DNA of 32,000 nt from Candidatus Altimarinota bacterium (lineage in GTDB: Bacteria; Patescibacteriota; Gracilibacteria; UBA1369): the NCBI GenBank assembly GCA_041659405.1, contig JBAZYK010000004.1, positions 60,001 to 92,000 on the forward strand. The letters are read 5' to 3'. Numbering within the stretch: the stretch's first letter is position 1; every line of letters starts with the position of its first letter. A program made the translations under genes and the position numbers. Shown here one piece after another: positions 11,837 to 28,981 of this stretch. Below the pieces are notes generated by a model that saw only the letters and a list, made by a program, of their open reading frames with translations, had not been told where the DNA came from and ran no database searches.

Positions 11837-11974
11837 ATGGAATATAACAAAATCGTTCTGCCGCCTCTTCAAACCAAAGAAGAATTTTCAGATGAACTGG
11901 AAGCTGCAGAACGTGATTGGCAAAAAAACGGAGGCCTTACTCTAAAGAAAATATCGCAAAAATATAAACTTTAA
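11837..11974 (+). CDS. Small hypothetical ORF (45 aa, MEYNKIVLPPLQTKEEFSDELEAAERDWQKNGGLTLKKISQKYKL)
   Basis: ATG at 11837 and TAA at 11972-11974, found by hand translation (below the ORF-track cutoff). It fills the gap between the SLH gene and the convergent paralog, overlapping that paralog's stop by 4 nt. No recognisable family. Confidence 0.25.
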   Translation: MEYNKIVLPPLQTKEEFSDELEAAERDWQKNGGLTLKKISQKYKL

Positions 11975-13672: not shown

Positions 13673-15910
13673 TTAAATCAGCGGCACCTCAAAATCTTCC
13701 GCCTGTTGAATCACGTTGTTGGTCTGCGGCAAAGGTTCATCCAGCTTTCCTTCATCCCAACGTTTCAAATTTTCTTCAACCTTTTCACGAGGGTTGCAAT
13801 ACTTTTTGCGTGAAGCTTCAATAATTTGTCTGGTGTAATCAACTTCCGGAAATTTCATATCCAGAGTTCGCCCGGAAAAGGCTTCTGTAAGCTCTCCATT
13901 GATTGACATTTTTAAATAAAATTCACGAACGCCAAGGTTAATAATATCGCGAATATTGAAAATTGGCGTGTATTCACCTTCCAGAATCACCGCATCTTCC
14001 GCTCCAACTCTAAAACTAATCATGGAACCGACGTTACCAAAAACCGTTTTACGAATCATCTCACTCAGCTGCCCAATATATTGATGCGCAATGGTCATGC
14101 ACAAGCGATATTTACGGGCTTCGGACATGATTTCGGAAAAGGTATCTGTGGCAAAGTTTTGGAATTCATCCACATAGAAATAAAAATCTTTGCGATCTTC
14201 TTCGCGCATATCCGCGCGGGACATCGCCGCCTGATAAATTTTTGTGATAATCATCGAACCGATCAACTGCGCGTTTTCCTCACCCAGCAGACCTTTAGAG
14301 ACCTTCATCAAAAGGATTTTTTGACCGTCCATAATATCGCGAATATTAAAACTGTTCTTCGGCTGGCCGATAATATTACGAATCATATTTGTGGAAACCA
14401 GCTGTCCAACTTTATTGAGCAGTGGAGTAATGGCTTCAGAATCGAACTTTTCACTCCATCCGGCAAATTCATTTACCCAGAAATTTTTCACCACCGAATC
14501 CTCGATCCTGGACACAATCGACTGACGATAATTCTTATCCGAAAGCATTTTTAAAATCGAAAGCACAGTCGTGTTTGGCGAGTCCAGAAGCGCCAAAGTC
14601 ACATAACGCAAAACGTGTTCCAGACGGTCTGACCAGTTATTTCCAAACAGTTTTTTAAAGATTTGAATAAAACCAATTGTAATCTGCATTTTGTATTTTT
14701 CGTCGACTTTTTCCAATGGATTAAAAGCGATGGGGAACTCCGTATCGGCAGGATCAAAATAAATTACATCATTGATGCGATTTTCCGGAATCATGCGTAA
14801 AATGTTGTCTACAAGGTCTCCGTGCGGATCAAGCACGCAAATTCCCTTACCGGAATGAATATCCGAATGGATCAAAAGTTCCAAAGCTTTCGATTTGCCA
14901 ACACCGCTTTTCCCCACAACGTACAAATGTCTGCGGCGATCTTCACGCTTCAAGCCAAATTTTTGAAAATTGTTATGATAATTCGTAATTCCAAACATGG
15001 AAATGTCATCACCATGGGTCGGTAAATCTTTTGGAGGTTCGTGTTTTTTGGCTAACACATGCACAACATGAGGCACGTGATCGGCATTCGGCAAATGGAA
15101 AAAAGTTGCCAATTCATGAGTGCTTACCATTCCCGGATTGGTCATATGTCGCTTCTTGTACTCATTCAAAAACGACTGTCCGCTTTTTACGCGCTCCATT
15201 TCAAAACCATTCGCGTCGGTTTTGTTGAATTGATAAAAGGCTTTTGCAAGCGCCTGGAGTGTTCTGTCAGCCTCGGATTCTTCTGTCGAAACAGCACCAA
15301 TTCGAATTTGAATTTCAAAAGGTTCGTGCTCTGTTTTATGCACAAAAGACTCATTTTCTTCTTTGAAATAGGTTTTTTTATCCTTCAAACGAACGTAATT
15401 CTTAAGTCTGAAGTTCCGTCTAAAATTGTTAAATTTCATCTTCCATCTGCGCACAAAATGATATTTCCAGTTGTCGTCTTTTGGTGAAACCAAAATCTGG
15501 ATCCAGGAATAATCCTGGCGTTTCATCTTGGAAATAACCGCAAAAACACCGGAAAGAGAGTCATTTTCAAAATGACTGTAATCCACAAAAGGATAAATAT
15601 CGCTCATTCTAAAGCTCAAACTCGTTCCTTTTAGAACGTGCTTGGTTGGATCATAAAATTCGGTGTAATCTTTATAAGGACGGATTTCACAGTCCGGAAA
15701 AGTCGCATAGAGTAGACCTTCAATCAATTTTACATTGCCGGATTCGCAGCCAATAAAAAAGTAGGTGTATTCATTATACCCCAGCATTTCAAACGAAAAA
15801 TGGCCATGGTGAGCCGATTTATGCAGGTTATCCAAAAAATTCAGGAAGAGACCTTCTTTTTTTGGATTATCCGGTGTTCCCTGCGGTATGACAACATGTA
15901 AATATTCCAT
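13673..15910 (-). CDS. VirD4/TraD/TraG-like (type IV coupling-protein-like) P-loop ATPase, soluble form
   Basis: 745 aa. Walker A LYVVGKSGVGKSKALE, Walker B-like DFYFYVDEFQNF, and a TraG/TraD C-terminal-type motif ARKYRLCMTIAHQYIGQL. There is no hydrophobic N-terminal segment. No other T4SS genes are present in the window. Confidence 0.75.
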   Translation of the reverse strand: MEYLHVVIPQGTPDNPKKEGLFLNFLDNLHKSAHHGHFSFEMLGYNEYTYFFIGCESGNVKLIEGLLYATFPDCEIRPYKDYTEFYDPTKHVLKGTSLSFRMSDIYPFVDYSHFENDSLSGVFAVISKMKRQDYSWIQILVSPKDDNWKYHFVRRWKMKFNNFRRNFRLKNYVRLKDKKTYFKEENESFVHKTEHEPFEIQIRIGAVSTEESEADRTLQALAKAFYQFNKTDANGFEMERVKSGQSFLNEYKKRHMTNPGMVSTHELATFFHLPNADHVPHVVHVLAKKHEPPKDLPTHGDDISMFGITNYHNNFQKFGLKREDRRRHLYVVGKSGVGKSKALELLIHSDIHSGKGICVLDPHGDLVDNILRMIPENRINDVIYFDPADTEFPIAFNPLEKVDEKYKMQITIGFIQIFKKLFGNNWSDRLEHVLRYVTLALLDSPNTTVLSILKMLSDKNYRQSIVSRIEDSVVKNFWVNEFAGWSEKFDSEAITPLLNKVGQLVSTNMIRNIIGQPKNSFNIRDIMDGQKILLMKVSKGLLGEENAQLIGSMIITKIYQAAMSRADMREEDRKDFYFYVDEFQNFATDTFSEIMSEARKYRLCMTIAHQYIGQLSEMIRKTVFGNVGSMISFRVGAEDAVILEGEYTPIFNIRDIINLGVREFYLKMSINGELTEAFSGRTLDMKFPEVDYTRQIIEASRKKYCNPREKVEENLKRWDEGKLDEPLPQTNNVIQQAEDFEVPLI

Positions 15911-16062
15911 TGCTATAGCTGCTATTCAGAGTTTAATTATAGCAGGAAAACGCCTAAAATGCAACCGTCAAGTGGCCTGCCCTGAGGCAAAAACGGATCT
16001 AAATCATCTGATCAACAAAAATTTAGCAAAAATTTATGATTTGTTAATGTGCTTAGTGTATT

Positions 16063-16131
16063 TTGATATTGTTTCAATAAAACAACATATATGATAAGAT
16101 ATACGGTGGAATATATAATCTATCATATATG
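16063..16131 (+). promoter_or_regulatory. Putative promoter and inverted-repeat operator of the Phd/RelE operon
   Basis: TTGATA at 16063-16068 is followed about 17-18 nt later by an AT-rich -10-like catatat. An inverted repeat catatatgataagat (16086-16100) / atctatcatatatg (16118-16131) gives 14 bp with one bulged A and overlaps the -10 region and the start codon. Confidence 0.45.
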
Positions 16132-16377
16132 AAATCAATAATTACCACTACCCAGGTGCAACAAAAAATTGGCAAAATATCGGAAGAAATAGTGGAAAAC
16201 AGCTATGTCGTCACCAACAGGGGAATGGCAAAAATTGTCATGCTCCCATATTTTGATGGTTGTGATGATTTTATCGATGATTACATGGAAGAATTCGAGA
16301 TACTTAAAAACAGAACAAAATTGCAAAAAGAACTTAAGGAATCACTTAAGTCCGGTAAAAGCTCTCTCCAAATATGA
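16129..16377 (+). CDS. Type II antitoxin, Phd/YefM-like
   Basis: 82 aa. The N-terminal pattern MKSIITTTQVQQKIGKISEEIVENSYVVTNRGMAKIVMLPY fits the Phd/YefM fold signature. The stop overlaps the downstream toxin start (ATGA at 16374-16377). Confidence 0.7.
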   Translation: MKSIITTTQVQQKIGKISEEIVENSYVVTNRGMAKIVMLPYFDGCDDFIDDYMEEFEILKNRTKLQKELKESLKSGKSSLQI

Positions 16378-16643
16378 ACACTTTTGTTTTTACAAAAAGC
16401 GCCCAGAAGCAGTTTTTAAGCATTTCATCTTTGGCTCAAACCCAAATAAAAGCAAAACTTGGACTGCTTAAAAATTATCCGGACATTATAAAAATAATGA
16501 AGCCCCTTCATAATTTGGAACCGGCCACACATCGCTTAAGAATCGGCGCTTATCGATTATTGCTTTGCCTAAAATCAAGCCATCAAAATGACCAAGAGTT
16601 TTGGATCCTCAAAATCGGACATCGAAAAGATGTTTATAAATAG
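16374..16643 (+). CDS. Type II toxin, RelE/ParE superfamily
   Basis: 89 aa with a C-terminal HRLRIGAYRLLLCL...FWILKIGHRKDVYK typical of RelE/ParE. It is translationally coupled to the upstream antitoxin. Confidence 0.75.
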   Translation: MNTFVFTKSAQKQFLSISSLAQTQIKAKLGLLKNYPDIIKIMKPLHNLEPATHRLRIGAYRLLLCLKSSHQNDQEFWILKIGHRKDVYK

Positions 16644-16664
16644 TTACTTTTAACTCGAAGAAAT

Positions 16665-18356
16665 TTAATAAACCGCTTCCAAATAACACTTTTCGCAATA
16701 AATAATTTCGGGCCTTTCCGGCGCATAAGTTGTTTTCAAATCCACGCCACATTTTGCGCAATTTCTATTCCAAAGTTTGCGAGGATTTATTAAAGCTTTT
16801 CGGGAATAATGCCTGCAGTCAGGGCAAAGTTTTGGCACAGGAACGCCCAATTTTCTATATAATTCCAATTCCTGGGAAATAACTTTGTAAGGATTGCCAT
16901 CTTTTTCGCAGATAAGCGCCGAGTTTAAAATATCATCATTAATTTCTTTGATTGTGCCCTTATCATTTAGTGCAAAAGTTTTTTGAGCAGCGATTTTTGG
17001 CTTAAGATAGTCATTCCAGTTAAACCCCTTGGCAATTGCCTCTTCCCGACTTAGTGGAAAATATTCCTGAGCCAACGTGTCATTATAGCCATAAGGCGAC
17101 ATTTGTTGCGGGTAAAATTCTCCCCACTCACCATTTTTTTTCATGTGTTCAATAATTTTTGGTAACAGTTCCTCGTATTGTTCTTTGGAATATTGCCTGT
17201 TCAAAATGCAATACTGCTTATGTCTAAGCCCAATACAGCCAAATAAATTCTGGGAACTAAAACAATAATCGCTATAAAATAAATCACTACATCCCAGGGA
17301 ACATTTAATACAAAATTTGGAATTATTTGTTAGGTATACGCCAACACATCCATACAAAAAAGTGGAATCCATGCCTGAGTTAAAGCAATCTTGGCTGTTT
17401 TGCATCATGCCGTCCCAAACATACTTAAGCCCTTCCGACATCATGACATCAAAACAAAATTTGCAGTTTTTTGATTGCATAATGTAGTCCCCAACGCAAT
17501 CTTCAGAAGCCAAAAGATGTGAATATAGCCGCGGTATTTTTTTTGAAATTTCCGAAACTTTTTCTTTAGTTTTTTTAATGTTTTCGTTTGAAAAAACAAA
17601 AGTTTTCATAAACTCCTGATACTCTTCTTTTGTTTTCTGCTCATTGAAAATGCAATATTGTTTATGCCTAAGGCCTACGCATCCAAAACAATCCGTACAA
17701 CTCTGACAATCATCACAGAAAAAACATTCATTTAGATTTTGGCTGTTCATAGACCAAAAACTGCGATAAGAGTTGGAAACTTTTACACATTCATAAGATA
17801 ATTCACATTCAAAACACCAAAACATATCCATGCAGTCCCGACTGGTTAGGCCAAACGTGTTGCAGTAATGACAATTTTCGGCTTGTTCGCTGTTAAAACA
17901 AAGATAACAATTTTTAAGATCATTAGTGTCATTGCAGTATTCGCTGGTTTCATTATTGCGATTTTGCAGGTTGATCGAAGGGACTTTTTTGAGTAGCTCC
18001 TCGAATTGGTCAAAAAATGGCCTGTTAAAGTCAAAATCTTTTCCATAAGTTAAAGGATCCCACTTGTCCGACCACCAGACAGCCTGATCATAAACCGGAT
18101 TTTTAAAAGTTGGAGGATAAACCGAAATAATATCCTTACCCGAAAAATCACATTTGCGCTTATATAAAACCCTTTCATTCCTAAAAGCCGTCAGGCGCTG
18201 CATTCTGCATTTGGGACAAATAACCGGCGCTGGCAATATATATTTTACGCCTTTAATAACAGGAGAAATCTTATCGTAAAATTCCAAATCTTCATTAGCG
18301 ATTTCAAAACTTTTCTGACAAATTTTGCAGTTTTTTATTTCTGACATATAGCCCAT
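16665..18356 (-). CDS. Cys-rich double-zinc-ribbon repeat protein, paralog 2 of 7
   Basis: 563 aa. CKICQKSFEI...FYDKISP...CPKCRMQRLTAFRNERVLYKRKCD; GCVGLRHKQYCIFNEQKTKEEYQ and GCIGLRHKQYCILNRQYSKEQYEELLPKIIEHM; C-terminal ...LCPDCRHY...RNCAKCG...IIYCEKCYLEAVY. The first C-terminal knuckle is CEKD instead of CxxC. Confidence 0.9.
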   Translation of the reverse strand: MGYMSEIKNCKICQKSFEIANEDLEFYDKISPVIKGVKYILPAPVICPKCRMQRLTAFRNERVLYKRKCDFSGKDIISVYPPTFKNPVYDQAVWWSDKWDPLTYGKDFDFNRPFFDQFEELLKKVPSINLQNRNNETSEYCNDTNDLKNCYLCFNSEQAENCHYCNTFGLTSRDCMDMFWCFECELSYECVKVSNSYRSFWSMNSQNLNECFFCDDCQSCTDCFGCVGLRHKQYCIFNEQKTKEEYQEFMKTFVFSNENIKKTKEKVSEISKKIPRLYSHLLASEDCVGDYIMQSKNCKFCFDVMMSEGLKYVWDGMMQNSQDCFNSGMDSTFLYGCVGVYLTNNSKFCIKCSLGCSDLFYSDYCFSSQNLFGCIGLRHKQYCILNRQYSKEQYEELLPKIIEHMKKNGEWGEFYPQQMSPYGYNDTLAQEYFPLSREEAIAKGFNWNDYLKPKIAAQKTFALNDKGTIKEINDDILNSALICEKDGNPYKVISQELELYRKLGVPVPKLCPDCRHYSRKALINPRKLWNRNCAKCGVDLKTTYAPERPEIIYCEKCYLEAVY

Positions 18357-18404
18357 AAAATACGGTCGAATTCTGAAACTTTATCGCCACATTTGCAAGG
18401 GGTT

Positions 18405-20054
18405 TCAATAAACCGCATCCAGATAACACTTTTCGCAATAGACAATTTCTGCATGTTTAGGCGGATAAGTCGTCTTCATCACTGCTCCGCATTTATTACA
18501 ATGATCTGAATAGATTTTATAACTGTTTCTCATATTCATTCTGGTGCGATGCCTGCATTCATAGCAGCTTCGTGGAATTGGTAAATTTGTTTTTTTGTAA
18601 AACGCCAATTCAAGCTTGATTATGCGATAATTTTTATGACACTCCGCACAGGTTAATATTTCTTTAGTTATACTTTCATCAATCGCTCCGGAAGAATCGG
18701 GTAATGCAGCCATAGTTGCAGGTACGTAATTCTTTTTATCTTCATCAAGCCAGCTATAACCGAGTTTCAAAGCTTCCGCTTTTGTAAGCGGATAAAAATC
18801 CTGAGCGGCGGTTTCGTTGTAGTCAAAAGGTGAAACGGTTTTTGGGAAAAACTGCCCCCATTCCCCATTTTTCTTCATCTGTTCAATAATTTGTGGCACC
18901 AGCTTTTCATATTCTTCTTTTGAGTATTGCTTGTTTAAAATGCAATATTTTTTGTGTCGCAAACCTACGCACCCAAAACAGTCGGCCGAAGAAACACAAC
19001 TATCGCAATAGCGTAAACCATTGGAAAACCAGGTGTAGTTGCAGAAAGCAATATCGGTGGATCCTCTTGAAACAAGTGATGAATAGACAACTTCACACTT
19101 TGGCCAACCTGCGGAATAGCAGCCGTAAACATCTTTTGAATCACTCAACGAAATGGAATTGCAACAATCTTCACCGTTATGACCATCAAAACAATCAATG
19201 CAATTTTTTGAGTCATACAGGTATTCTCCGCTGCAATTTTCGCTGTTAATCAGTTTAAGATTTCTGCGAATTGTCTTTTTGCGAATGTCCAAAAACAGCT
19301 GATAGGCTTCCTGATAACTTTTCCATGATCCATTCAGATATTTTTTCTTAAAGGTCTCGAATTCCTCTTTGCTGCAAGGTTTATTGAAGATGTGATAACT
19401 TTTATTAATTAAATTTGAACAAAGAAAGCAATTGTTGCAGCCACGGAGTTGATAAGAAAAATAACATTCATTGCTGTTCGCGGATTCCTGCAACATGACG
19501 CAGCTATAACAATTTTCACTATCGCTGCAGTTATAACAAAGCGTGCTGTTGTGAGTGTACATTGAGTCCAAAACGTCTTTATCGTTAACCATCCAATAAG
19601 AATACATCATGTCTTCACACCCGGCTACAAGCGAGTTTAAATAGCAATTTTTAGAAGTGCGGATGTGGCCGTTATAATCACAATTTTCACTGTTAAAAAC
19701 GGAAGTTCCTTCGCGAGGAACAACTTTTTGCAGTTCGGCAAATTGTTCAAAGAATGGACGATTAAAATCGAAATCCCGACCATAATCCAGGGCTTCCCAA
19801 GTGTCTCCCCACCAGATTGAGTTGGCGTAAATTTTGAACGGACTATCCGGTCTGTAAGCACTTAAAATTTCTTTTCCAGTGGAGTCACATTTCCTTTTAT
19901 AGAGCTTCCATTCATTGCGGAAAGCCATCAATATTTGCAATCTTTCATCCGGTGTCGTAGTTGGTTCCGGTACGCCAAGGCGTTTGCAAAACTCGATTTC
20001 CTGATCCTGAAGCTCAAAATTCTTACCTGATAAGTGTGATTTTCTAATAGACAT
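18405..20054 (-). CDS. Cys-rich double-zinc-ribbon repeat protein, paralog 3 of 7 (N-terminal ribbon ligands lost)
   Basis: 549 aa, colinear with the other copies. The N-terminal ribbon positions read KSHLSGKNFEL...TPDERLQILMAFRNE (Cys replaced by S, S, T, E). It has CFGCVGLRHKKYCILNKQYSKEEYEKLVPQIIEQM, and the C-terminal CAECHKNYRIIKLELAFYKKTNLPIPRSCYECRH...HCNKCG...VYCEKCYLDAVY is intact. Confidence 0.9.
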   Translation of the reverse strand: MSIRKSHLSGKNFELQDQEIEFCKRLGVPEPTTTPDERLQILMAFRNEWKLYKRKCDSTGKEILSAYRPDSPFKIYANSIWWGDTWEALDYGRDFDFNRPFFEQFAELQKVVPREGTSVFNSENCDYNGHIRTSKNCYLNSLVAGCEDMMYSYWMVNDKDVLDSMYTHNSTLCYNCSDSENCYSCVMLQESANSNECYFSYQLRGCNNCFLCSNLINKSYHIFNKPCSKEEFETFKKKYLNGSWKSYQEAYQLFLDIRKKTIRRNLKLINSENCSGEYLYDSKNCIDCFDGHNGEDCCNSISLSDSKDVYGCYSAGWPKCEVVYSSLVSRGSTDIAFCNYTWFSNGLRYCDSCVSSADCFGCVGLRHKKYCILNKQYSKEEYEKLVPQIIEQMKKNGEWGQFFPKTVSPFDYNETAAQDFYPLTKAEALKLGYSWLDEDKKNYVPATMAALPDSSGAIDESITKEILTCAECHKNYRIIKLELAFYKKTNLPIPRSCYECRHRTRMNMRNSYKIYSDHCNKCGAVMKTTYPPKHAEIVYCEKCYLDAVY

Positions 20055-20085
20055 AAGTGATAATAAAGATTTTCAAAATGATAAC

Positions 20086-20150
20086 CCAATAAACCCGTTT
20101 TGGATAGCACTTTTCACAAAAAATTTAGAAGATTTTAATTCTGGAATATT
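20086..20150 (-). pseudogene. Relic of the 3' end of an eighth paralog (decayed ...CEKCY..VY tail)
   Basis: The minus-strand reading of 20086-20125 gives F C E K C Y P K R V Y W, against the canonical Y C E K C Y L (D/E) A V Y stop. About 27 of 38 nt are identical to the 3' end of paralog 3 (18405-18442) by hand alignment. A PE...-like continuation runs to about 20150. There is no ORF, and the former stop now reads TGG. Confidence 0.5.
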
Positions 20151-20233
20151 AAGCTTGGTTAAAAGCCATGTTCTTGATATTTTATTTCATAACATTCATC
20201 ATATATATGAATTTAATTAATTTAACTAATTTT

Positions 20234-20479
20234 ATGTCAGTATTTACTTTGAAACTTTTCAACACAGGGCAAATAACCCTGCCTAAAGCATGGCGCGAAA
20301 AATTCACGACAAAGTTGTTTCTGGCAAAAGAAACCCCTGAAGGTTTATTGATCCAGCCAATCGAAAAGAATGAACTGGTCTATTTTGAAAATAAAGAAAG
20401 TTTTGGCCTGTATTGCGAAAAAGGCCTGCCAGTCGACGATATTATTTCAACCATCAAAAAAATCCATGGAGCAGATTGA
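20234..20479 (+). CDS. AbrB/MazE (SpoVT-AbrB) family DNA-binding protein or antitoxin-like protein, with no adjacent toxin
   Basis: 81 aa from the internal ATG at 20234 (MSVFTLKLFNTGQITLPKAWREKF...), which fits a swapped-hairpin AbrB-type motif. The longer ORF from 20168 adds an implausible Phe/Ile-rich leader. Confidence 0.6.
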   Translation: MSVFTLKLFNTGQITLPKAWREKFTTKLFLAKETPEGLLIQPIEKNELVYFENKESFGLYCEKGLPVDDIISTIKKIHGAD

Positions 20480-20503
20480 GAAATGAAAGGCCTACAAAAA
20501 ATT

Positions 20504-22240
20504 CTAATAAACCGCTTCCAGATAACATTTTTCACAATAGACGATTTTCCCCCGCTTAGCGGGGGACCCCGCTGCGGCGGTGGCTGGCCTTTCCGGCGCA
20601 TAAGAAGTCTGAATTTCTGCTCCACATTTTGCACATGCACGTTTCCAAAGATGCAGGGGGTTGCGTTTGCTCATCCTTTGTTTATGCCTGCAATCAGGGC
20701 AAAGATGAGGCAAAGGGATATTCCCTTTTTTATAAAATGCCAATTCCTGTTTGATAATTCGATAATTTTTATCACAGCCATCACAGCTCAGAATTGCCTG
20801 CAGTAAGTCATCCCGAACTTCAGCGACGTTATCAGGGATCTGAATTTTTGGTCCGGCATATTTGTTTGATAAATCCTCTTCTTGAAAACCAAGTCCAAGC
20901 TTCAAAATTTGCTCTTTTGTGAGAGGAAATTGCTCGTTTGCGACCGTTTCATTATAACTAAATTCAGAAATATTCATCGGGAAAAATTCACCGAAGTCGC
21001 CACTATTCGATCCGGAAACACTTATTTTCTTCATTTGTTCGATAATGCGCGGCACAATTTTTTCATATTCTTCTTTGGAATATTGTTTGTTCAAGATGCA
21101 ATACTGCTTATGCCTAAGCCCTACGCAGCCAAAGCAGTTTTGACTGCTAAAGCATCCAACGCAATAAATCAAATCACTTGTTCCAGACCAGCATTGAATG
21201 CAAAAAAGATCATGTTTTGCGCCTAATGCCGTATTGATTGATTCATAGACAAGCTCTGCATCGCGCCCAACCGTGCTCACATCCATATTGTCTTTGGAAT
21301 TACGCCAAACGTGTTCGCTGTATTTACAGTCCTCCGCATCATGGGCATGAAAACATTCTTCGCAATTTTTGCTTTGCTGAATGTAGTCACCGGAACAATT
21401 TTCGGCCTTCAAAAATTGGGCATAGCGATGCGGAAATTTCAATAATAACTTTTCAAATTCAAGTTTATTTTTAGATAAATTGGAATAAGAACCATCCAAG
21501 TATTTTCCCTTGAGAATTTCATACTCTTCTTTTGTATATTGTTTGTTAAAAATGCAGTATTCTTTTTGGCGAAGATTCACGCAAAAAAGACAATTTTTGC
21601 ATCCGATACAATCATTCAAAAAAGCGCTATCGGAACAACCGTTACAATTTTGTGACCACTTCAAATTATAACAGTTATAGCAATTATCAACTTCATAACA
21701 TTGCTGTGACTCATGTGAAAAAGATGAGTCAACGCAGTCGGTACATTTCTGCAGCCAATAGCCATAAAGACAGTCTTCATTGTTGCTGCTTTCAAAAACC
21801 AGATAGCAGTTTTTGCAATTGGCGATCAAATTACAATAATCCGAATTTTCATTATTTTCACTTTTGATATTCATTTGTGGAACCTCGTGCCAAAGCTCAG
21901 CGAATTGCTCAAAAAACGGCCTATTAAAATCAAAATCCTTACCAAATTCAGTGGCATCCCAAGTATCTTTCCACCATTCTTTATGATCATAGACTTTATA
22001 TTTTTTGTCGGGACTATACATCGAAATCAGCTGCTTTCCCGTTAAATCACATTTACGATTATAAAGTTTTCGTTCGTTTCTAAAGGCTAACCTCCGCTGT
22101 CTTCTGCAGTCAGGGCAAAGAGTCGGCGAGGGGATTTGATATTTTTTGCCACCAAAAACAGGCGAGATTTTTTCATAAAAATTCAAGTCATTATCCGTAA
22201 TTTCGAACTGAGTTTTACACTGACGACAGTTTTTTAACAT
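20504..22240 (-). CDS. Cys-rich double-zinc-ribbon repeat protein, paralog 4 of 7 (carries a 13-codon GC-rich insertion near the C-terminus)
   Basis: 578 aa. CRQCKTQFEI...FYEKISP...CPDCRRQRRLAFRNERKLYNRKCD; CLFCVNLRQKEYCIFNKQYTKEEYE and GCVGLRHKQYCILNKQYSKEEYEKIVPRIIEQM. The C-terminal ...SYAPERPATAAAGSPAKRGKIVYCEKCYLEAVY corresponds to ...YAPERPEIIYCEKCYLEAVY in paralog 2. Confidence 0.9.
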   Translation of the reverse strand: MLKNCRQCKTQFEITDNDLNFYEKISPVFGGKKYQIPSPTLCPDCRRQRRLAFRNERKLYNRKCDLTGKQLISMYSPDKKYKVYDHKEWWKDTWDATEFGKDFDFNRPFFEQFAELWHEVPQMNIKSENNENSDYCNLIANCKNCYLVFESSNNEDCLYGYWLQKCTDCVDSSFSHESQQCYEVDNCYNCYNLKWSQNCNGCSDSAFLNDCIGCKNCLFCVNLRQKEYCIFNKQYTKEEYEILKGKYLDGSYSNLSKNKLEFEKLLLKFPHRYAQFLKAENCSGDYIQQSKNCEECFHAHDAEDCKYSEHVWRNSKDNMDVSTVGRDAELVYESINTALGAKHDLFCIQCWSGTSDLIYCVGCFSSQNCFGCVGLRHKQYCILNKQYSKEEYEKIVPRIIEQMKKISVSGSNSGDFGEFFPMNISEFSYNETVANEQFPLTKEQILKLGLGFQEEDLSNKYAGPKIQIPDNVAEVRDDLLQAILSCDGCDKNYRIIKQELAFYKKGNIPLPHLCPDCRHKQRMSKRNPLHLWKRACAKCGAEIQTSYAPERPATAAAGSPAKRGKIVYCEKCYLEAVY

Positions 22241-22252
22241 AATTCAGAGCTT

Positions 22253-23905
22253 TTAATATACTTCCTTTTCATAACATTTTTCGCAGTATACAACTTCCGG
22301 GCGATCGGGCGAATATGTGGTTTTAATTTCCGCACCACATTTTGCGCAATTTCTGGTCCAAAGTTTGCGTGGATTTCGTAAGTCAAAACGCGCCTTATAT
22401 CTGCAATTAAAGCACTTTAAAGGCACCGGGATATTCATTTTTTTATAAAGTTTTAATTCCTGACTAACCAATTTGTAATTTTTCCCGCAGCATTCACAGG
22501 TTAAAATTTTATTGGCAAAACTTTCATCAACATTGGAAATTTTTTCCGGAATTACAATTTTTGCACCCTGATATTTTGTGATGCTTTCCTCATCTTTCCA
22601 CTTAAACCCTTTTTGCAGGATTTGCTCTTTGCTAAGCGGATAATACTCATTTGCAACGGTCTCATTATAAGCAAAAGGCGAAAGTTGTGCCGGGAAAAAT
22701 TGTCCCCATTCTCCTGTTTCTTTCATATGTTCAATAATACGCGCACTCAATTTTTCATATTCTTCTTTGGAGTATTGTTTATTGAAAATACAATACTGTT
22801 TTCGGCGCAGACCAATGCAGCCAAACAGGTCTCCCGATCCGGCAAAACAGTAATAACAATGGGTTAAATTTTTAATATTATTACCGCAATAAGCGCTGAA
22901 TTTTACGTTATAAAAGCCGTTTCCGCAGAGCTGGTTTTCGTAACCAAGTTCAGCCGGCAAGCCCCAGGCATAACAATCGTAACAATCCTTGGCGCGATGA
23001 AACCAGACGCACCATTTGCAATCTTCCAGATAGGTGGAGTCATAACATTCTTCTGAATTTTTTGAAAAGAAAACGTGATCACCAGTCACATTTTCATTGC
23101 TGATTCCGGCATAATATTTATGCGGAATTGATTTTTTTAACGCATAAAATTTCTCACGGGCAGCCTCAAAAGAAGCTCTATCTTTAAGTAATTCCTGAAC
23201 TTTTTTGAAATATTCTTCTTTGGAGTATGGCTTATTAAAAATATAATATTCCTTGTTTTTTAGCGACACACAGCCAAAACAGTTCGAGCATCCTTTGCAG
23301 TCATACAGAAAATATGAATCTCGGCAATTCTGACAAATCTGACTGTGCTGCAGATTGTAGCAGTTATAACTATCAATACATTCATAGCAAAGCTCCGAAT
23401 CAAAAATAAAAAAACAGTCAGAAACATCCTTGCAGCGCTGAATATAGGTTGTATAAAAACAATCTTCACTGTCGCTCGCCGCAAAAATCAAATAACAATT
23501 TTTATTTCCGGAACTTAAATGTGTATAGTCGCAATTCACATTATCATCGTGCATGTTGATGGAAATAACCGGAACCTCCAACATCATCTCTTTGAATTGT
23601 TCAAAAAACGGCCTGTTAAAGTCAAAATCACGGCCATATTTCATTGGATCCCATTTGTCACTCCACCAACACTTATGACAATAAACTTTCACCGATTTAT
23701 CCGGCGAATAAATCGAAATTATCTGTGAGCCGCAAAGATCACATTTACGGTTATAAAGTTTGCGCTCATTACGCCAGGTTAAGCGCCTTTGCATGCGACA
23801 ATCAGGGCAAAAATTTGGCTGCGGAACCTGCATTTTTGTATAAAAAGCCTGATCCTTATCTGTGATTTCAAATGATCCGCCACATTGTTTGCAGGATTTA
23901 TTCAT
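22253..23905 (-). CDS. Cys-rich double-zinc-ribbon repeat protein, paralog 5 of 7 (both N-terminal ribbons fully liganded)
   Basis: 550 aa with 42 Cys by hand count. N-terminal CKQCGGSFEI...FYTKMQVPQPNFCPDCRMQRRLTWRNERKLYNRKCDLCG...VYCHKCWW. C-terminal CECCGKNYKLVSQELKLYKKMNIPVPLKCFNCRY...RNCAKCG...VYCEKCY. Confidence 0.9.
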   Translation of the reverse strand: MNKSCKQCGGSFEITDKDQAFYTKMQVPQPNFCPDCRMQRRLTWRNERKLYNRKCDLCGSQIISIYSPDKSVKVYCHKCWWSDKWDPMKYGRDFDFNRPFFEQFKEMMLEVPVISINMHDDNVNCDYTHLSSGNKNCYLIFAASDSEDCFYTTYIQRCKDVSDCFFIFDSELCYECIDSYNCYNLQHSQICQNCRDSYFLYDCKGCSNCFGCVSLKNKEYYIFNKPYSKEEYFKKVQELLKDRASFEAAREKFYALKKSIPHKYYAGISNENVTGDHVFFSKNSEECYDSTYLEDCKWCVWFHRAKDCYDCYAWGLPAELGYENQLCGNGFYNVKFSAYCGNNIKNLTHCYYCFAGSGDLFGCIGLRRKQYCIFNKQYSKEEYEKLSARIIEHMKETGEWGQFFPAQLSPFAYNETVANEYYPLSKEQILQKGFKWKDEESITKYQGAKIVIPEKISNVDESFANKILTCECCGKNYKLVSQELKLYKKMNIPVPLKCFNCRYKARFDLRNPRKLWTRNCAKCGAEIKTTYSPDRPEVVYCEKCYEKEVY

Positions 23906-23931
23906 GATTCAAAATCTTTTTAGAGTAAAAA

Positions 23932-25587
23932 TTAATAAACTTCTTTTAAATAACAGCTTTCGCAATAGACGATTTCTGGCCTATTTGGGGCGTAACTCGT
24001 CGTTATTGCTACGCCGCACTTTGCACAATTGCGTTCCCAAAGCTTGCGTGGATTTCTAGCCTCCATGCGTTCCAAGTGTCTGCATTCATGACAAATATTT
24101 GGCACGGGAACGTTAATTTTGCGATAAAGCTGTAATTCCTGAGGAATTATTTTGTAATTTTTTGAACATTTATCGCAGACCAGAATTTGTTTTGTTATTT
24201 CATTTGGAGTTTCCTGAATATTTTTTGAAATAATGACTTTTGATCCCTGATATTTACCTGAAAGATCTTCATTTTTCCAGTTTGCTCCTATCTTTTTTGC
24301 CTGTTCAGGTACTAATGGAAAATAATCCTGAGCCAAAGTCTCGTTATAACTAAAAACAGAAATGCTCATCGGGAAAAATTGCCCCCATTCGTCCGTTTTT
24401 CGCATGTGTTCAATGATTCGCGGCACTAATTTTTCGTAATCTTCTTTGGAGTATTGTTTATTCAAAATACAATATTCATTCTTTTTTAGGCCTACGCAGC
24501 CAAAAATATTTTTTGAATTAAAGCAAAGACTATTGTAATAATCAAAACTATCAAACCAGCAAATATCGTTAAAGGCATGCATATAATTACTTTCGCTACC
24601 CACGGCTTCATAAACAAGTTCGGAATTGTCATCATTGATAACGTCATAAGAATCCTTCATATTGGTTGCATTGCAAACAAATTTGCAATCCTGGAGATTT
24701 TTGCCTTCGTAACAATTCAGGGAATTTTTTGAATTAAAAAGCGCGTCACCTGTACAGTTTTCTAAGTTTACGCCGTTTATATATTTCCTTATTGCCTGCT
24801 TTTTTAGCTCATTAAATAGAGCTTTACTCGCTTCGAAGTTTTTAAGCAATTCGGGAAGTTTTTTGCGATATTCTTCTTCACTATACTTTTTATTCTCGAT
24901 ATAAAATTCAGCATTATTAAGATTGCAGCAGGCAAAACAGTTTTTACAGCCCTTTAAATTAAAGCCTAAAATACAGTCACTGCAGTTATTTGAATTTTGT
25001 AGATATTGTGAGTTGTAGCAATTTTCGCAGTCCACTAGTTCATAACAAAGTTCACCTGTATTAAGGTTTGAGCATTCAGCACAATCCTTCATTTTAAAAC
25101 TGCGATTGGAATAGTACGAATTTTCACAATATCCACATGTAAATAAAAGATAAGAATTTTTATTACGAAATCCAAAGTTACAATATTCACTGTTTTCGAT
25201 TTCTTTATTGATGAGTGCAATTCGCGGTACGACTTTTAAAAGTTCGGCAAATTGCTCAAAAAATGGCCTATTAAAATCAAAATCACGGCCATAATCCAAG
25301 GGATTCCATTGGTCTCCCCACCAGGCTTCGCGGCCATAAACTTGTACAGGTTTGTCGGGACTATACATTGAAATGATTTCTTTCCCTGTTAAATCGCATT
25401 TTCGATGATAGAGTTTTCTTTCATTGCGAAATGCTAAACGCCTCTGCATGCGGCAATCAGGACAAAATACCGGTGCGGGTATTTGGTATTTTTTACCAGC
25501 AAAAATTGGAGAGATTTTTTCGTAAAATTTCGAATCCTCATCAGTGATTTCAAACGCGTTTCCGCATTGTCTACAGTTTTTAGTCAT
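23932..25587 (-). CDS. Cys-rich double-zinc-ribbon repeat protein, paralog 6 of 7
   Basis: 551 aa. CRQCGNAFEI...FYEKISP...CPDCRMQRRLAFRNERKLYHRKCD; CFACCNLNNAEFYIENKKYSEEEYRKK and GCVGLKKNEYCILNKQYSKEDYEKLVPRIIEHM; C-terminal CDKCSKNYKIIPQELQLYRKINVPVPNICHECRH...RNCAKCG...VYCESCYLKEVY. Confidence 0.9.
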   Translation of the reverse strand: MTKNCRQCGNAFEITDEDSKFYEKISPIFAGKKYQIPAPVFCPDCRMQRRLAFRNERKLYHRKCDLTGKEIISMYSPDKPVQVYGREAWWGDQWNPLDYGRDFDFNRPFFEQFAELLKVVPRIALINKEIENSEYCNFGFRNKNSYLLFTCGYCENSYYSNRSFKMKDCAECSNLNTGELCYELVDCENCYNSQYLQNSNNCSDCILGFNLKGCKNCFACCNLNNAEFYIENKKYSEEEYRKKLPELLKNFEASKALFNELKKQAIRKYINGVNLENCTGDALFNSKNSLNCYEGKNLQDCKFVCNATNMKDSYDVINDDNSELVYEAVGSESNYMHAFNDICWFDSFDYYNSLCFNSKNIFGCVGLKKNEYCILNKQYSKEDYEKLVPRIIEHMRKTDEWGQFFPMSISVFSYNETLAQDYFPLVPEQAKKIGANWKNEDLSGKYQGSKVIISKNIQETPNEITKQILVCDKCSKNYKIIPQELQLYRKINVPVPNICHECRHLERMEARNPRKLWERNCAKCGVAITTSYAPNRPEIVYCESCYLKEVY

Positions 25588-25870
25588 ACGTAGGCGAGTT
25601 GCAATTTATTAAAATTATTTTAAACTCACAGCTTACATTTATACCACACTGTATTACTTTGTAAACTTAATGGAAAAAGAAAGACAAAGCAATGTACCAT
25701 AATAGCCCTTACATAAGCCTTTACAGCTGGATCTAATTGATGTATATTATCTGTAGAAACACTTTTACAACAAGACCGCCAAAGGCGATCCGCGCCTGCC
25801 CTAAGCAGGCATAGCAGTTAACTCCTGCAAAGCAGGAACAAAATTATTAATTCATATAATTCCAAGTTGA

Positions 25871-26650
25871 ATGTTCTACCCCGATTTTGATCTTTTAGGC
25901 CTAACTGAAACCGAAGGCAAAGTTTATATGGCAACGCTGGAGCTTGGAGGAGGCTACGTTAGCGCGTTAGCCCGCCGAGCCAAACTTCCACGCGTAAACT
26001 GTTACCACACGCTTGAAAACCTGGTTAAAAAGGGCCTGGTGAGCTTTATTACGAAAGATAAGGTTAGGTATTACTCTGCTGAACCGCCGCAAACCATTGT
26101 TCATGCTCTTGAAGAAAAAAGTAAATACGCCCGAAAAATTCTTCCTGAGCTCCTTTCCATCACCAATACGCTCGCCTTTAAGCCAAAAATTAAATATTTT
26201 GAAGGAATGGAAGGAATTAAAAACATTTTGGAAGATGTCTTAACGATGAAAGAAGACCCTTCAACAGCCAAAAAAGAAATGCTCGGTTATTCCAACTTGA
26301 AAGCCTTTGGCGAGATTTTGGATGATTTTATTCCCAATTACGCCGCCGAAAAAATGAAGCGCAACATTAAAACCCGCATTATTTGCCCCAGTAGTTCGGA
26401 AGCATTTTCTTACGTGAAAAATCATTATCCCAAAAATTTCCCACCGGAACTTGTTGAGATTTTATTCGTAAATCCAAAAGAATTCTGGTTCGAACATCAG
26501 ATCATGATTTACAACAACAAAGTGGCAGTTATCTCTTTAAATAAAGAAGAACTGGTTGGGATGATTTTTGAAAGTCCGGTCTATGCGCGCTCGCAAACGG
26601 CAATTTTTAATCTGGCCTGGTTGGGCGCCAGCAGCTTTATTGCGCTGTGA
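25871..26650 (+). CDS. TrmB-family winged-helix transcriptional regulator
   Basis: 259 aa. N-terminal LGLTETEGKVYMATLELGGGYVSALARRAKLPRVNCYHTLENLVKKGLVSFI matches the TrmB-type wHTH pattern. A C-terminal effector-like domain is present. Confidence 0.75.
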   Translation: MFYPDFDLLGLTETEGKVYMATLELGGGYVSALARRAKLPRVNCYHTLENLVKKGLVSFITKDKVRYYSAEPPQTIVHALEEKSKYARKILPELLSITNTLAFKPKIKYFEGMEGIKNILEDVLTMKEDPSTAKKEMLGYSNLKAFGEILDDFIPNYAAEKMKRNIKTRIICPSSSEAFSYVKNHYPKNFPPELVEILFVNPKEFWFEHQIMIYNNKVAVISLNKEELVGMIFESPVYARSQTAIFNLAWLGASSFIAL

Positions 26651-26683
26651 TATAGCCGAATTTCACAAAGTGCGGCGAGCGGC

Positions 26684-28333
26684 TTAATAAATTTCCTTCA
26701 AATAACATTCTTCACAAAGCACTGTTTCCGGCCTTTTCGGAGCGTAAGTTGACTGAAGTTTTTTTGAACAGTTGCTGCAAATTCTTTCAAAAAGTTGTCG
26801 TGGATTACGAATCTGCATCCTTTGTTTATGCCTGCACTCTGAGCAAATTCTTGGCACAGGAATATCCATTTTACGATAAAACTGCAATTCTTGATTAACA
26901 ATTTTGAAATTCTTATGACAATCCAAACAGAGCAAAATTTCGTTAACCATTGCATCTGTAAAATCTTTAATTTGATCCGGAATTTTCAACCTTTGAGGTT
27001 GTGCAGTTTTTTCATCTTCATCCTTCCACTGGAATTTTTCTTTTAGTGCCTGCTCTTTTGTCAGAGGATAATAAGCAGAAGAAGTGGACTCATTATACCC
27101 AAAACAGGCTAAATCCTTTGGCAAAAACTTTCCCCATTCCCCATTTTTTTTCATGTGCTCAACAATTTTCGCATACAATTTTTCATAATCTTCTTTTGAA
27201 TATTTTTTATTTAAAATACAGTATTGCTGATTCTTAAGCCCTGTACAGCCCAAAAGATTTTGGGAATTTTGGATAAAATCGCAATATTGAATATTAGATG
27301 AATCCGCAATGAAAAATGAAAATTGAATATTATAACATTTCATAACAGACACACACTGATACAAAAGCTCAGCATCATCACCCAAAAGGCAGGACTGAAA
27401 ACAATCTTTTTCCTTGCTGGCGAAGATAATATTACGCAAATCCTGGCTTTCACTTACATCAAAACAGTTCTTACAATTTTTACTGTTTTTAATGTAATCA
27501 CCGCTGCAATCCTGGCAGGAAACAGTATGAATATATTTAACTTTTCGCTTCTTTAGTAAATCCAAAAAATCCCCAAAATTCTTTTGCTGCTGCACATAAG
27601 ACCCATTTATCAGCTCCTGCTTTTTTTGCAGATATTCTTCTTTTGAATATTTTTGATTATTGATGCAATAGGATTGATTAGCCAAATTTGTGCACAAAAT
27701 ACATTCGCTGCAACCAATACAGTCACTAATAAAATAACAATTATTACAGTTTTTTGAATCAAAAGTAACCCGGCAACCATATGAATTTAGAGTGTCTCCC
27801 ATCACATAACAAAGCTCGTTAAAATTGCTGTAATCAAGGTCAAGTGAGCCCACGTTGCTCATGCAAAGCGTGCCAAACAAACAGTTTTGATTAAAATCAC
27901 CACCAAAAATTAAATAACTGTCTTTATTTCCATAAGCACTATTGCAGTAATCGCTATTAACAGCATTTATATTTGTTAATGCCAGTCTTGGTACTTGCAA
28001 TTGTAATTCTTTAAACTGTTCAAAAAACGGCCTGTTAAAGTCAAAATCGCGACCATAAGAAAGCGCGTCCCATTTGTCACCGTACCAATAATCGCTTTTA
28101 TAAACCTTATATGGCTTGTCAGACGAATAGATAGAAATAATTGTCTCACCGGTTGCATCACATTTTCTTGTATACAGTGCCCGTTCATTTCTAAAACAAA
28201 GTCTTTGCTTTTGATCACATTCGAAGCATAATTCTTGTGGTTCAAATCCGAATTTTTTAAAACAATCCCAATCTTCCTGCTCGTAAGAAGAAGGCTTCTG
28301 GCACTCTTTGCAATTAAAAGTTACAATCGACAT
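26684..28333 (-). CDS. Cys-rich double-zinc-ribbon repeat protein, paralog 7 of 7 (most divergent)
   Basis: 549 aa from the internal ATG at 28333 (MSIVTFNCKECQKP...); the longer ORF adds 17 unconserved residues. CFECDQKQRLCFRNERALYTRKCD; CILCTNLANQSYCINNQKYSKEEY and GCTGLKNQQYCILNKKYSKEDYEKLYAKIVEHM; C-terminal CLDCHKNFKIVNQELQFYRKMDIPVPRICSECRH...RICSNCS...VLCEECYLKEIY. Confidence 0.9.
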   Translation of the reverse strand: MSIVTFNCKECQKPSSYEQEDWDCFKKFGFEPQELCFECDQKQRLCFRNERALYTRKCDATGETIISIYSSDKPYKVYKSDYWYGDKWDALSYGRDFDFNRPFFEQFKELQLQVPRLALTNINAVNSDYCNSAYGNKDSYLIFGGDFNQNCLFGTLCMSNVGSLDLDYSNFNELCYVMGDTLNSYGCRVTFDSKNCNNCYFISDCIGCSECILCTNLANQSYCINNQKYSKEEYLQKKQELINGSYVQQQKNFGDFLDLLKKRKVKYIHTVSCQDCSGDYIKNSKNCKNCFDVSESQDLRNIIFASKEKDCFQSCLLGDDAELLYQCVSVMKCYNIQFSFFIADSSNIQYCDFIQNSQNLLGCTGLKNQQYCILNKKYSKEDYEKLYAKIVEHMKKNGEWGKFLPKDLACFGYNESTSSAYYPLTKEQALKEKFQWKDEDEKTAQPQRLKIPDQIKDFTDAMVNEILLCLDCHKNFKIVNQELQFYRKMDIPVPRICSECRHKQRMQIRNPRQLFERICSNCSKKLQSTYAPKRPETVLCEECYLKEIY

Positions 28334-28465
28334 GTGAAATAAAAAATCTAAACGGATTATAATAATAGTAGTCCGTAAACGCAATTAACAACCTCCACAA
28401 CCTTCGAGGTCGGCCCAACCTCAAAGGTCGGTTGTAAGAAATAGTCCAATAACCCGTCATAAGAT

Positions 28466-28981
28466 ATGCAAAACATGAATCCCGAAGAAATTGAAAAGGA
28501 GTTTGTAAAAACCTACGATCTGTATGCTGATGCCATTTTTAGGCACTGTTACTTCCGCATTAACGACCGTGAAAGGGCCAAAGATTTAATGCAGGAGGTC
28601 ATGATTAAAGGCTGGCTTTACCTTAAAGAAGGCCAAAAAATTGATAACATCCGGGCGCTCCTTTATAAAATTGCCCACAACATTATCATTGATGAAATCA
28701 GAAAAAAGAAAGCGGTTTCGTTGGATACTTTAAAAGAACAGGGATTTGAACCAGCGGACGAAAAAGATGAATCGGCCGAACTTGAAAAAATAATGGAGGT
28801 GGGAAAAGTTAAAGATTGCCTCCCCAAAATGAATCCAAAATATCGCGAAGTCATTGTAATGAGATACATAGATGAACTCTCAATCAAAGAAATGGCTGAA
28901 ACTCTGGCAGAATCGGAAAACGTCATCTCGGTCAGACTCAATCGCGCAACCAATCAACTTCGACAATTATTAAAAAATTAA
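28466..28981 (+). CDS. ECF-type sigma-70 family RNA polymerase sigma factor
   Basis: 171 aa. Region 2-like YDLYADAIFRHCYFRINDRERAKDLMQEVMIKGW...LYKIAHNIIIDEIRKKK, and region 4 HTH YREVIVMRYIDELSIKEMAETLAESENVISVRLNRATNQLRQLL. Confidence 0.85.
   Translation: MQNMNPEEIEKEFVKTYDLYADAIFRHCYFRINDRERAKDLMQEVMIKGWLYLKEGQKIDNIRALLYKIAHNIIIDEIRKKKAVSLDTLKEQGFEPADEKDESAELEKIMEVGKVKDCLPKMNPKYREVIVMRYIDELSIKEMAETLAESENVISVRLNRATNQLRQLLKN

Follow-up and report, generated by a model that had tools for sequence, protein, structure and literature searches.

Conserved, divergently transcribed pairs of a regulator and its target gene reportedly represent a general principle, set out by Korbel et al. in 2004. 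Here we analyze a locus, part of which resembles such pairs, in a 32,000-nucleotide (nt) stretch from a Candidatus Altimarinota bacterium (positions 60,001 to 92,000 of contig JBAZYK010000004.1, assembly GCA_041659405.1; hereafter, the window). The locus is a run of eight minus-strand genes, namely, seven paralogs (par1 to par7) encoding Cys-rich proteins of ~550 amino acids (aa) with treble-clef zinc ribbons at each end and one gene for a VirD4-like ATPase. This run is interrupted three times and bounded once by plus-strand genes: a Phd/ParE pair, an AbrB-like gene, a TrmB-like gene and, at the boundary, a gene for an extracytoplasmic function (ECF) sigma factor. An earlier note on this DNA, made from the sequence alone, proposed that these are four regulators heading four blocks of the array. 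The best explanation overall, to which we assign a probability of about 0.7, is different: one dedicated regulator (TrmB-like), two selfish cassettes (Phd/ParE and AbrB), and one neighbor (the sigma factor).

Several described systems can be compared with parts of this locus. As in the regulator-target pairs mentioned above, the TrmB-like gene stands head-to-head with an operon in distant relatives, with back-to-back promoter-like elements and a candidate operator on the regulator's own promoter; in contrast to those pairs, the target is an uncharacterized paralog array of the candidate phyla radiation (CPR), with predicted control of the target promoter. The regulator shares with TrmBL2 and TrmB of Thermococcales (5BPD, 5BQT, 3QPH) a winged helix, a long helix, and a C-terminal alpha/beta domain, and TrmBL2 is likewise ~255 aa long; however, the sequence identity is merely 14–16%, and the host is bacterial (CPR) rather than archaeal. 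The two cassettes resemble type II Phd/YefM-ParE/RelE and AbrB/MazE-RelE modules in their small overlapping genes with the antitoxin first, an AT-rich upstream motif that travels with the cassette, and a patchy distribution; they differ from known modules in that the Pfam scores in the window are under the gathering cut-offs and that the AbrB-type cassette is toxin-less, with the stub MEQIEK* left. In chromosomal cassette arrays, such as the Vibrio superintegrons, a stabilizing role has been proposed for toxin-antitoxin (TA) cassettes. Small TA units are likewise scattered in the long tandem array of related genes analyzed here, but, unlike in superintegrons, there are no attC sites or integron integrase at the array, the cassettes run opposite to the array, and one of them has lost its toxin. 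Finally, 5,713 VirD4-like homologs have been reported in 2,918 Patescibacteria genomes, merely 148 of them near virB4 (PMC12102498). The ATPase of the array resembles these orphan coupling-protein homologs in belonging to the VirD4 family and having no virB4 neighbor. The same study does not mention TrmB, and the link of the ATPase to the arrays is synteny established in the present analysis.

A conserved regulator-array pair

The TrmB-like gene (25871–26650, plus strand; 259 aa) is divergent from par6 (23932–25587, minus strand) across a 283-nt spacer and was assigned to the TrmBL2 type of transcription regulators from Pfam, AlphaFold2, Foldseek, and synteny. A divergent arrangement of its ortholog (48–80% identity) and a paralog is seen in all 14 assessable contexts, that is, those in which the contig extends beyond the start of the TrmB ortholog. 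These contexts are the window, L001, G006, G016, G007, G038, G026, G030, G036, L046, L047, a 928-kb JGI contig, L049, and L051 (G, L, and C numbers are our handles for genomes, loci, and contigs); a related-locus search with TrmB gave only four close loci, and the broad survey comes from a genome search and the encoding contigs. TrmB orthologs number 289 in total. One inserted unit parts TrmB from the paralog in two of the 14 contexts (G026 and G030). In the paralog tree, all members of the par6 clade with a visible upstream gene (window, G006, and G038) adjoin a TrmB ortholog. Furthermore, four of the eight TrmB-like genes in the 1.5-Mb genome to which the window belongs are head-to-head with a paralog (on contigs C1, C6, and C9, and in the window), which is far beyond chance given the estimated ~10 paralog blocks and ~1,500 genes. 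We conclude that the TrmB-like gene is the conserved cognate partner of the array. To this extent, the notion of a dedicated regulator for each block holds: the conserved divergence and, as described below, a palindrome and back-to-back promoters speak for TrmB, and such a role is not supported for Phd/ParE, AbrB, and the sigma factor.

The winged helix-turn-helix domain of the TrmB-like protein is recognized by Pfam PF01978, with a score of 46.5 bits over residues 9–71 (cut-off, 25.6). In the AlphaFold2 model (pLDDT 90.2), the winged helix is followed by a long helix (residues 74–102) and then a C-terminal alpha/beta domain. A sequence search of the PDB with this protein gave no match; the fold search succeeded, with the best Foldseek matches to the TrmBL2 structures 5BPD and 5BQT over the full length (261–276 columns, E values from 9e-13 to 2e-11) and a further match to TrmB (3QPH; E 5e-9). 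The global TM-score against TrmBL2 and TrmB is only about 0.36 (range 0.33–0.38), presumably, low because of the domain orientation. No Pfam or NCBIfam match beyond the winged helix-turn-helix, such as one to the sugar-binding subdomain of TrmB and TrmBL1, was found, and the protein has 259 aa compared to 335 in TrmB; therefore, we regard it as TrmBL2-like rather than a sugar-sensing TrmB.

The inserts mentioned above differ between the two genomes. In G026 (L028 8845–10057), as well as in L048 (6792–7841), the inserted gene encodes a PALP-domain (cysteine-synthase-like) protein and is the first gene on the array side. In G030 (L029 10240–11082), two open reading frames (ORFs) lie between the palindrome and TrmB; by sequence reading only, these are a nucleotidyltransferase/HEPN TA pair.

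Promoters and a candidate operator in the TrmB/par6 spacer

In an alignment of eight orthologous TrmB/paralog spacers (45% mean column identity), the most distinct feature of the spacer is an operator-like imperfect palindrome, TGTAGAAA-CAC-TTTTACAAC, at 25752–25771; on the minus strand, it reads GTTGTAAA-N5-TTCTACA, and this block contains 15 columns that are invariant in the eight genomes. The palindrome occurs once in the 1.5-Mb genome, and a search of the genome with its pattern yielded no copies upstream of the other three blocks of the window. A relaxed pattern adds one further match, in a TrmB-like/paralog spacer on contig C1. In the spacer of that pair (G000 C1 76125–78546), the palindrome is perfect (TGTAGAA-N5-TTCTACA); the paralog of the pair has degenerated into a 340-aa ORF without the N-terminal ribbons and a separate 121-aa C-terminal piece.

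The spacer contains two promoter-like elements. One is directed towards TrmB (TTTACA-17-TATATT, 25720–25748, plus strand; 10 of 12 positions in the consensus scan), and its −35 block (GTAAAGGCTTAT in the array orientation) is kept in the orthologous spacers; the palindrome starts 3 nt downstream of its −10 box. The other, a predicted array promoter (TTTACA-N17-TATAAA, 25636–25665, minus strand), lies ~45 nt upstream of par6 and retains its position and sequence in 7 of the 8 orthologous spacers. The two elements are arranged back-to-back, with ~55 bp between the −35 boxes. The simplest reading of this sequence arrangement is a self-repressed TrmB promoter back-to-back with an array promoter; conserved synteny suggests that TrmB would control the array promoter as well. 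By the titles of its PDB entries, TrmBL2 is a chromatin-like, largely non-specific binder, whereas the window spacer has a specific conserved palindrome, which suggests site-specific autoregulation by the TrmB-like protein.

Alternatively, all four plus-strand genes, TrmB included, could be chance neighbors in a compact genome, with the array transcribed as a whole. CPR genomes are indeed gene-dense, and the earlier note's observation that the convergent junctions contain no terminator hairpins was borne out: when both strands of the three junctions were folded, no terminator-like hairpin was found (z from −1.0 to +0.8). A generic scan also gave 62 promoter-like sites compared with 53 ± 8 expected, which is not above chance overall, and 18 terminator-like sites compared with 14 ± 4 expected, which is uninformative by itself. 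However, synteny that holds in all 14 contexts, at identities as low as 48%, the pairing of 4 of the 8 TrmB-like genes of the genome with paralogs, and a spacer palindrome that is invariant and unique in the genome already contradict this explanation for TrmB and make it very improbable.

Between the candidate operator and the TrmB start, the spacer contains a GC-rich hairpin element (25774–25837, core 25786–25818). A segment of ~95 nt holding this hairpin is missing from six of the seven orthologous spacers. At least seven further copies of the central 30 nt of the hairpin element (ATCCGCGCCTGCCCTAAGCAGGCATAGCAG) occur elsewhere in the genome (five on C3, and on C10 and C1) with 91–97% identity; therefore, the element is a small dispersed hairpin repeat.

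A Phd/ParE cassette next to the ATPase gene

Two plus-strand genes, encoding a Phd/YefM-like antitoxin (16129–16377) and a ParE/RelE-like toxin (16374–16643), overlap by 4 nt, with the antitoxin first. They lie between par2 (16665–18356, minus strand) and the ATPase gene (13673–15910, minus strand), 21 and 218 nt away, respectively. The matches to PhdYeFM_antitox (22.8 bits compared with a cut-off of 29.8) and ParE_toxin (22.2 compared with 23) are below the cut-offs, and there is no NCBIfam match; the 16129–16643 segment is regarded as a probable complete type II TA pair, mainly by the architecture of the gene pair and by its homologs. The distribution of its homologs is patchy (7 of 41 related genomes): paired homologs are present in six other genomes, and the pairing is kept in all 8 homologous loci examined. 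Two of these loci are inside paralog arrays (G007:C129 and G030:C33), one is 1.6 kb from a solo paralog (G030:C30), and four have no paralog in view (G035, G033, G017, and G028:C15); a weaker Phd locus, G028:C9, was left out of the inspection of neighbors.

Adjacent to the Phd gene is a predicted AT-rich promoter/operator region (16085–16128, plus strand; ATATATGATA...ATATATAAT...ATATATG). This motif is common to the Phd loci within and outside arrays and is, therefore, part of the cassette. At the opposite end of the spacer, ~25 nt upstream of the ATPase ATG, there is a promoter-like element directed towards the ATPase gene (TTGCAT-17 nt-TATAAT, 15936–15964, minus strand). The block that contains this predicted promoter, GGTTGC..TTTAGG..TGCTATAAT, recurs in L047, in which the ATPase gene comes after a paralog with no TA cassette present; thus, Phd/ParE apparently lies between the par2 end and an ATPase promoter that was already in place. 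Other relatives, too, have a promoter-like match in the short stretch that precedes the ATPase gene. These observations do not support the assignment of Phd/ParE as the regulator of the ATPase block.

A translation of positions 15930–16079 (plus strand) in the same spacer weakly resembles the N-terminal ribbons of the paralogs and could be a very decayed inverted relic; as the similarity is not significant (blastx E 0.028, HMM E 0.077), this candidate was dropped. In G030, the C30 paralog is headed by AbrB-toxin and Phd/ParE, and the C33 paralog by Phd/ParE (L033 and L029). The two paralogs are recent duplicates (100/100 tree support, short branches), so that the TA cassette and the paralog were copied jointly, as one segment.

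An orphan AbrB-like antitoxin at a scarred junction

The AbrB-like gene (20234–20479, plus strand; 81 aa, with a start that agrees with the homologs) lies between par4 (20504–22240, minus strand) and par3 (18405–20054, minus strand), with a convergent spacer of 24 nt and a divergent spacer of 179 nt. Its scores are again below the cut-offs (MazE_antitoxin, 23.2 bits compared with 24.7; TIGR01439 AbrB, 18.5 compared with 28.3). Homologs with 51–74% identity are present in the loci of six relatives, where each is overlapped by a following gene for a 77–85-aa RelE/ParE-like protein; these proteins are assigned to RelE/ParE toxins by the motif MDxIEKFL...YRIRVGKIRI and one weak Pfam match. In the window, a six-codon toxin stub, MEQIEK* (20466–20486, plus strand), overlaps the 3' end of the antitoxin gene and matches the toxin start MDQIEKF in G030 and G024. 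We found no toxin similarity in the window beyond these six codons, and the closest toxin homolog elsewhere in the genome is 34–39% identical. An ORF at 20483–20806 (plus strand) was rejected as the missing toxin because it is an antisense frame inside par4 with no toxin similarity.

The other side of the gene carries a scar of its own. A decayed C-terminal tail of a paralog (IFCEKCYPKRVY, 12 codons, 20089–20124, minus strand) lies ~30 nt ahead of the par3 start and is detected by blastx (E 0.001) and by the paralog HMM (positions 535–557 of 557, E 0.0014, two in-frame stops). The juxtaposition of this relic with AbrB and the toxin stub implies, therefore, that a paralog was replaced by the cassette and the toxin was lost afterwards. 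Comparison of the three closest AbrB loci shows that only the AbrB-proximal 45 nt of the spacer are conserved (TTAGTTAAATTAATTAAATTCATATATATGAT, 20189–20233, plus strand), and not the paralog-proximal part. By its sequence context, the AbrB-like gene is probably an orphan antitoxin, and a role as a block regulator is not supported. More generally, as conserved upstream sequence travels with the cassettes, inside and outside arrays, the proposal that Phd/ParE and AbrB regulate the adjacent blocks is not supported.

The flanking sigma factor

The plus-strand gene at the boundary of the array (28466–28981), 132 nt from par7, encodes an ECF sigma factor (TIGR02937, 82.3 bits compared with a cut-off of 42.9; Pfam Sigma70_r2 and r4_2 above cut-off). 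Together with the next gene, encoding a protein with a Pfam DUF5667 match, a putative anti-sigma factor (29000–29908, plus strand), it opens a flanking sigma-DUF5667-HD-NrdR cluster. The sigma-DUF5667 pair is kept in G001, G005, and G033, with a paralog neighbor (a frameshifted par7 ortholog) only in G001, which belongs to the same genus as the window genome. In L002, the HD-NrdR genes come directly after the ATPase gene. From this gene neighborhood, the sigma factor is a member of the neighboring cluster, with DUF5667 as its conserved partner; this partner not being a paralog, sigma is not supported as a regulator of par7.

The array without the cassettes

If the cassettes are insertions, relatives with a continuous array are expected, and these do exist. 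In L001, TrmB is divergent from five paralogs followed by the ATPase gene and one paralog, with no cassettes; the order and count equal those in the window (par6, 5, 4, 3, 2, then ATPase and par1). L002 and the JGI contig have five uninterrupted paralogs each. Insertion into a once-continuous array, which the earlier note had offered as an alternative, is thus supported by the relatives without the AbrB and Phd/ParE units and by the paralog tail and toxin stub. The pairing of plus-strand genes with blocks is conserved across relatives for TrmB (14 of 14) and fails for the sigma factor outside the genus; for AbrB and Phd/ParE, it is found in about half of the homologous loci, and L001, L002, and the JGI contig have nothing inserted at the orthologous junctions.

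Arrays in other relatives show which genes recur at block heads. In L047 (1202–15889 of a 1.3-Mb contig), two TrmB-like genes break up the array; each is transcribed away from the paralog that comes next and overlaps the 3' end of the preceding paralog by 4–7 nt. At the head of the first four-paralog block stands a divergent NYN-domain gene. In G024, a paralog headed by an AbrB cassette is directly followed downstream by a convergent ORF pair (L037 4515–5088), by sequence reading only a MazF/PemK-like toxin and a CopG/RHH-like antitoxin. It is TrmB-like genes that recur at block heads; the other frequent cause of interruption is a TA cassette.

We propose the following scenario. The locus would be an accessory system of the ultra-small Peribacteria (CPR), the ancestral form of which was, probably, one divergent pair: a TrmBL2-type winged-helix regulator on one side and, on the other, a co-directional array of Cys-rich zinc-ribbon genes followed by the VirD4-like ATPase gene, the latter most often with its own promoter. 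TrmB would bind the palindrome, TGTAGAAA-N3-TTTTACA, right after its own promoter and repress itself, and, as conserved synteny suggests, would also govern the par6 array promoter. Later, a complete Phd/ParE cassette would have entered the gap between the par2 end and the ATPase promoter, and a cassette consisting of an AbrB-fold antitoxin and a RelE/ParE-like toxin would have replaced a paralog between par4 and par3 and then lost its toxin, with the six-codon stub and the 12-codon paralog tail as the remains. Both cassettes carry conserved upstream regions of their own and, like other type II systems, are probably self-regulated.

The alternative closest to the earlier note is that each block is controlled by the divergently encoded protein, with Phd and the orphan AbrB co-opted, such that subsets of paralogs are expressed differentially or in a mutually exclusive manner. 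The layout is exact, and some comparisons fit as well: in G024 and G030, the closest AbrB homologs (72–74% identity) likewise form a divergent pair with a paralog; Phd/ParE is found within arrays in G007 and G030; the array of L047 shows the same divergent-plus-convergent pattern at its two TrmB-like cuts; and in G001, par3 is headed by another TrmB-like gene, so that a DNA-binding gene at the block head recurs. Nevertheless, this model appears improbable: the orthologous junctions are empty in the relatives listed above, conserved upstream sequence goes with the cassettes and not with the paralogs, the ATPase promoter is also kept where no TA cassette is present, the sigma factor is unlinked to paralogs outside the genus, and half of the loci with Phd and AbrB homologs have no nearby paralog.

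Several points weigh against the scenario of one regulator and two selfish cassettes. The palindrome is located on the TrmB promoter, ~90 bp from the array promoter, where no second palindrome was found, so that control of the array by TrmB comes without a direct cis-element. The orphan AbrB gene has stayed intact after the loss of its toxin, as would also be expected of a co-opted regulator. Both types of cassettes are found beside paralogs at a rate higher than chance would suggest (twice in G030 and once in G007 for Phd/ParE; for AbrB homologs, in G024 and G030 and, in a co-directional arrangement, in G039), so that some functional tie is conceivable. Finally, the promoter calls are matches by consensus and cross-genome conservation only, with the scan alone at chance, and the related genomes are kin, so that the conservation counts are not independent.

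Fluidity of the arrays

The content of the arrays varies among relatives. Paralogs that belong to arrays in G006 and L002 have orthologs in the window genome that are solo genes with their own TrmB-like partners. Of the 15 related genomes searched, 6 gave no match to the family, and other relatives have 5–17 matches; the system is therefore accessory and patchy. The genomes without a match (G012, G020, G002, G019, G023, and G032) are mostly complete, belong to the same family or order, and still have TrmB-like genes.

Within the genus, nucleotide homology between G001 and the window breaks off precisely at the par3 start (20055) and picks up again precisely at the par7 stop (26684), such that 6.6 kb of the window (20055–26683) correspond to 1.7 kb in G001 (L043 896–2593). 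The 1.7-kb segment contains a TrmB-like gene without an ortholog in the window genome and a 181-aa ORF without a match there. The par3 ortholog in G001 is 92% identical at the protein level and has a different head gene. A speculative extension, to which we give low probability, is that block heads are interchangeable regulatory head modules, comprising TrmB-like subfamilies and domesticated antitoxins, that are swapped by recombination at gene boundaries. If so, the G001 replacement from the par3 start to the par7 stop would be one such swap, and close strains would express different subsets of zinc-ribbon paralogs under different signals.

It is somewhat conceivable, though still unlikely, that the TA cassettes are kept as stabilizers of the array, with post-segregational killing selecting against deletions that join tandem paralogs, or that the arrays are a variable region that gathers mobile or defense-type cassettes. 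Besides Phd/ParE in the window, G007, and G030, and AbrB with a RelE-like toxin in G024, G030, and G039, this explanation can draw on the MazF/CopG-type pair in G024 and the nucleotidyltransferase/HEPN pair in G030 (both by sequence reading), the switching of paralog orthologs between arrays and solo sites, the 6.6-kb swap within the genus, the lack of family matches in 6 of the 15 genomes searched, and an integrase gene 10 kb away. However, one of the two cassettes in the window is toxin-less and cannot stabilize anything, and the paralogs, with 41–46% protein identity, offer little substrate for homologous deletion. Gathering or stabilization by TA cassettes is also compatible with, rather than exclusive of, the preferred combination of one regulator, two selfish cassettes, and a neighbor.

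As a regulatory architecture, this combination is ordinary: a divergent repressor, predicted to be autoregulated, plus selfish inserts. Its practical value is that a conserved regulator can be named, together with a 20-bp candidate operator and two back-to-back promoter-like elements, which makes the system testable, and that two TA cassettes, which otherwise would mislead annotation of the system, are set apart. In addition, the locus shows TA cassettes and small hairpin repeats remodeling an operon in a streamlined genome.

Paralogs, ATPase, and transcription units

The gene map was obtained from a six-frame ORF list combined with Pfam and NCBIfam scans, with the paralogs delineated by alignment, and reproduces all the coordinates and spacers of the earlier note. 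The remaining minus-strand genes are par5 (22253–23905), which is tightly packed with par4 and par6 (gaps of 12 and 26 nt, respectively), par1 (11971–13659; 562 aa), which closes the ATPase-par1 unit, and par7 (26684–28333), the 3' end of which is 33 nt from the convergent TrmB gene. The par7 protein has 549 aa when translated from the ATG at 28333; the start at the listed TTG (28384) was dropped because the resulting N-terminal extension is absent from every other paralog.

The paralogs had been taken for ATPases, which we reject, as they are Cys-rich zinc-ribbon proteins. The protein sequence of par1 is 41–46% identical to those of the other six in the alignment. The family is very large in Patescibacteria: 7,895 of the 8,000 scored candidates matched, all without a functional name and mostly annotated as 'hypothetical', and related contigs carry the label Candidatus Peribacteria. 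Literature searches on the Pfam families of the paralogs and the ATPase, and on TrmB in Patescibacteria, found no paper on these arrays. With more than 7,800 relatives, these Cys-rich zinc-ribbon arrays and their orphan VirD4-like ATPase rank among the most expanded uncharacterized gene families of Patescibacteria.

The ATPase itself, a soluble 745-aa VirD4/TraD/HerA-like protein, matches T4SS-DNA_transf (44 bits), TrwB_AAD_bind, DUF87, and TraG-D_C in Pfam. Its orthologs (54–80% identity) are encoded downstream of paralog arrays in relatives and contain DUF8128. No virB4 or channel genes were seen near the window ATPase in the family scans.

The blocks of the array are probably separate or semi-separate transcription units, as suggested by the sequence: such units are plausible because par7, par6-5-4, and ATPase-par1 each have their own conserved promoter-like element. 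The predicted par7 element is located at 28356–28391 (minus strand), with a −10 box, TATAAT, at 28361–28356; its −10 block, TTATAATCC..TAGATTTTT, is kept in G001 and is also picked by the generic scan. The par3-par2 block lacks a conserved promoter and may be transcribed by read-through across the antisense AbrB gene (246 nt) or from a new promoter.

Orthologs of par7 are present in G001 and G024. In G001, the gene is split into overlapping ORFs of 176 and 452 aa (L043 2594–4427), probably, through a frameshift or an assembly error. The par7/sigma spacer of the window also contains an extra GC-rich inverted-repeat segment at ~28370–28435 (CAACCGACCTTTGAGGTTGGGCCGACCTCGAAGGTTG), which is missing from the same spacer in G001.

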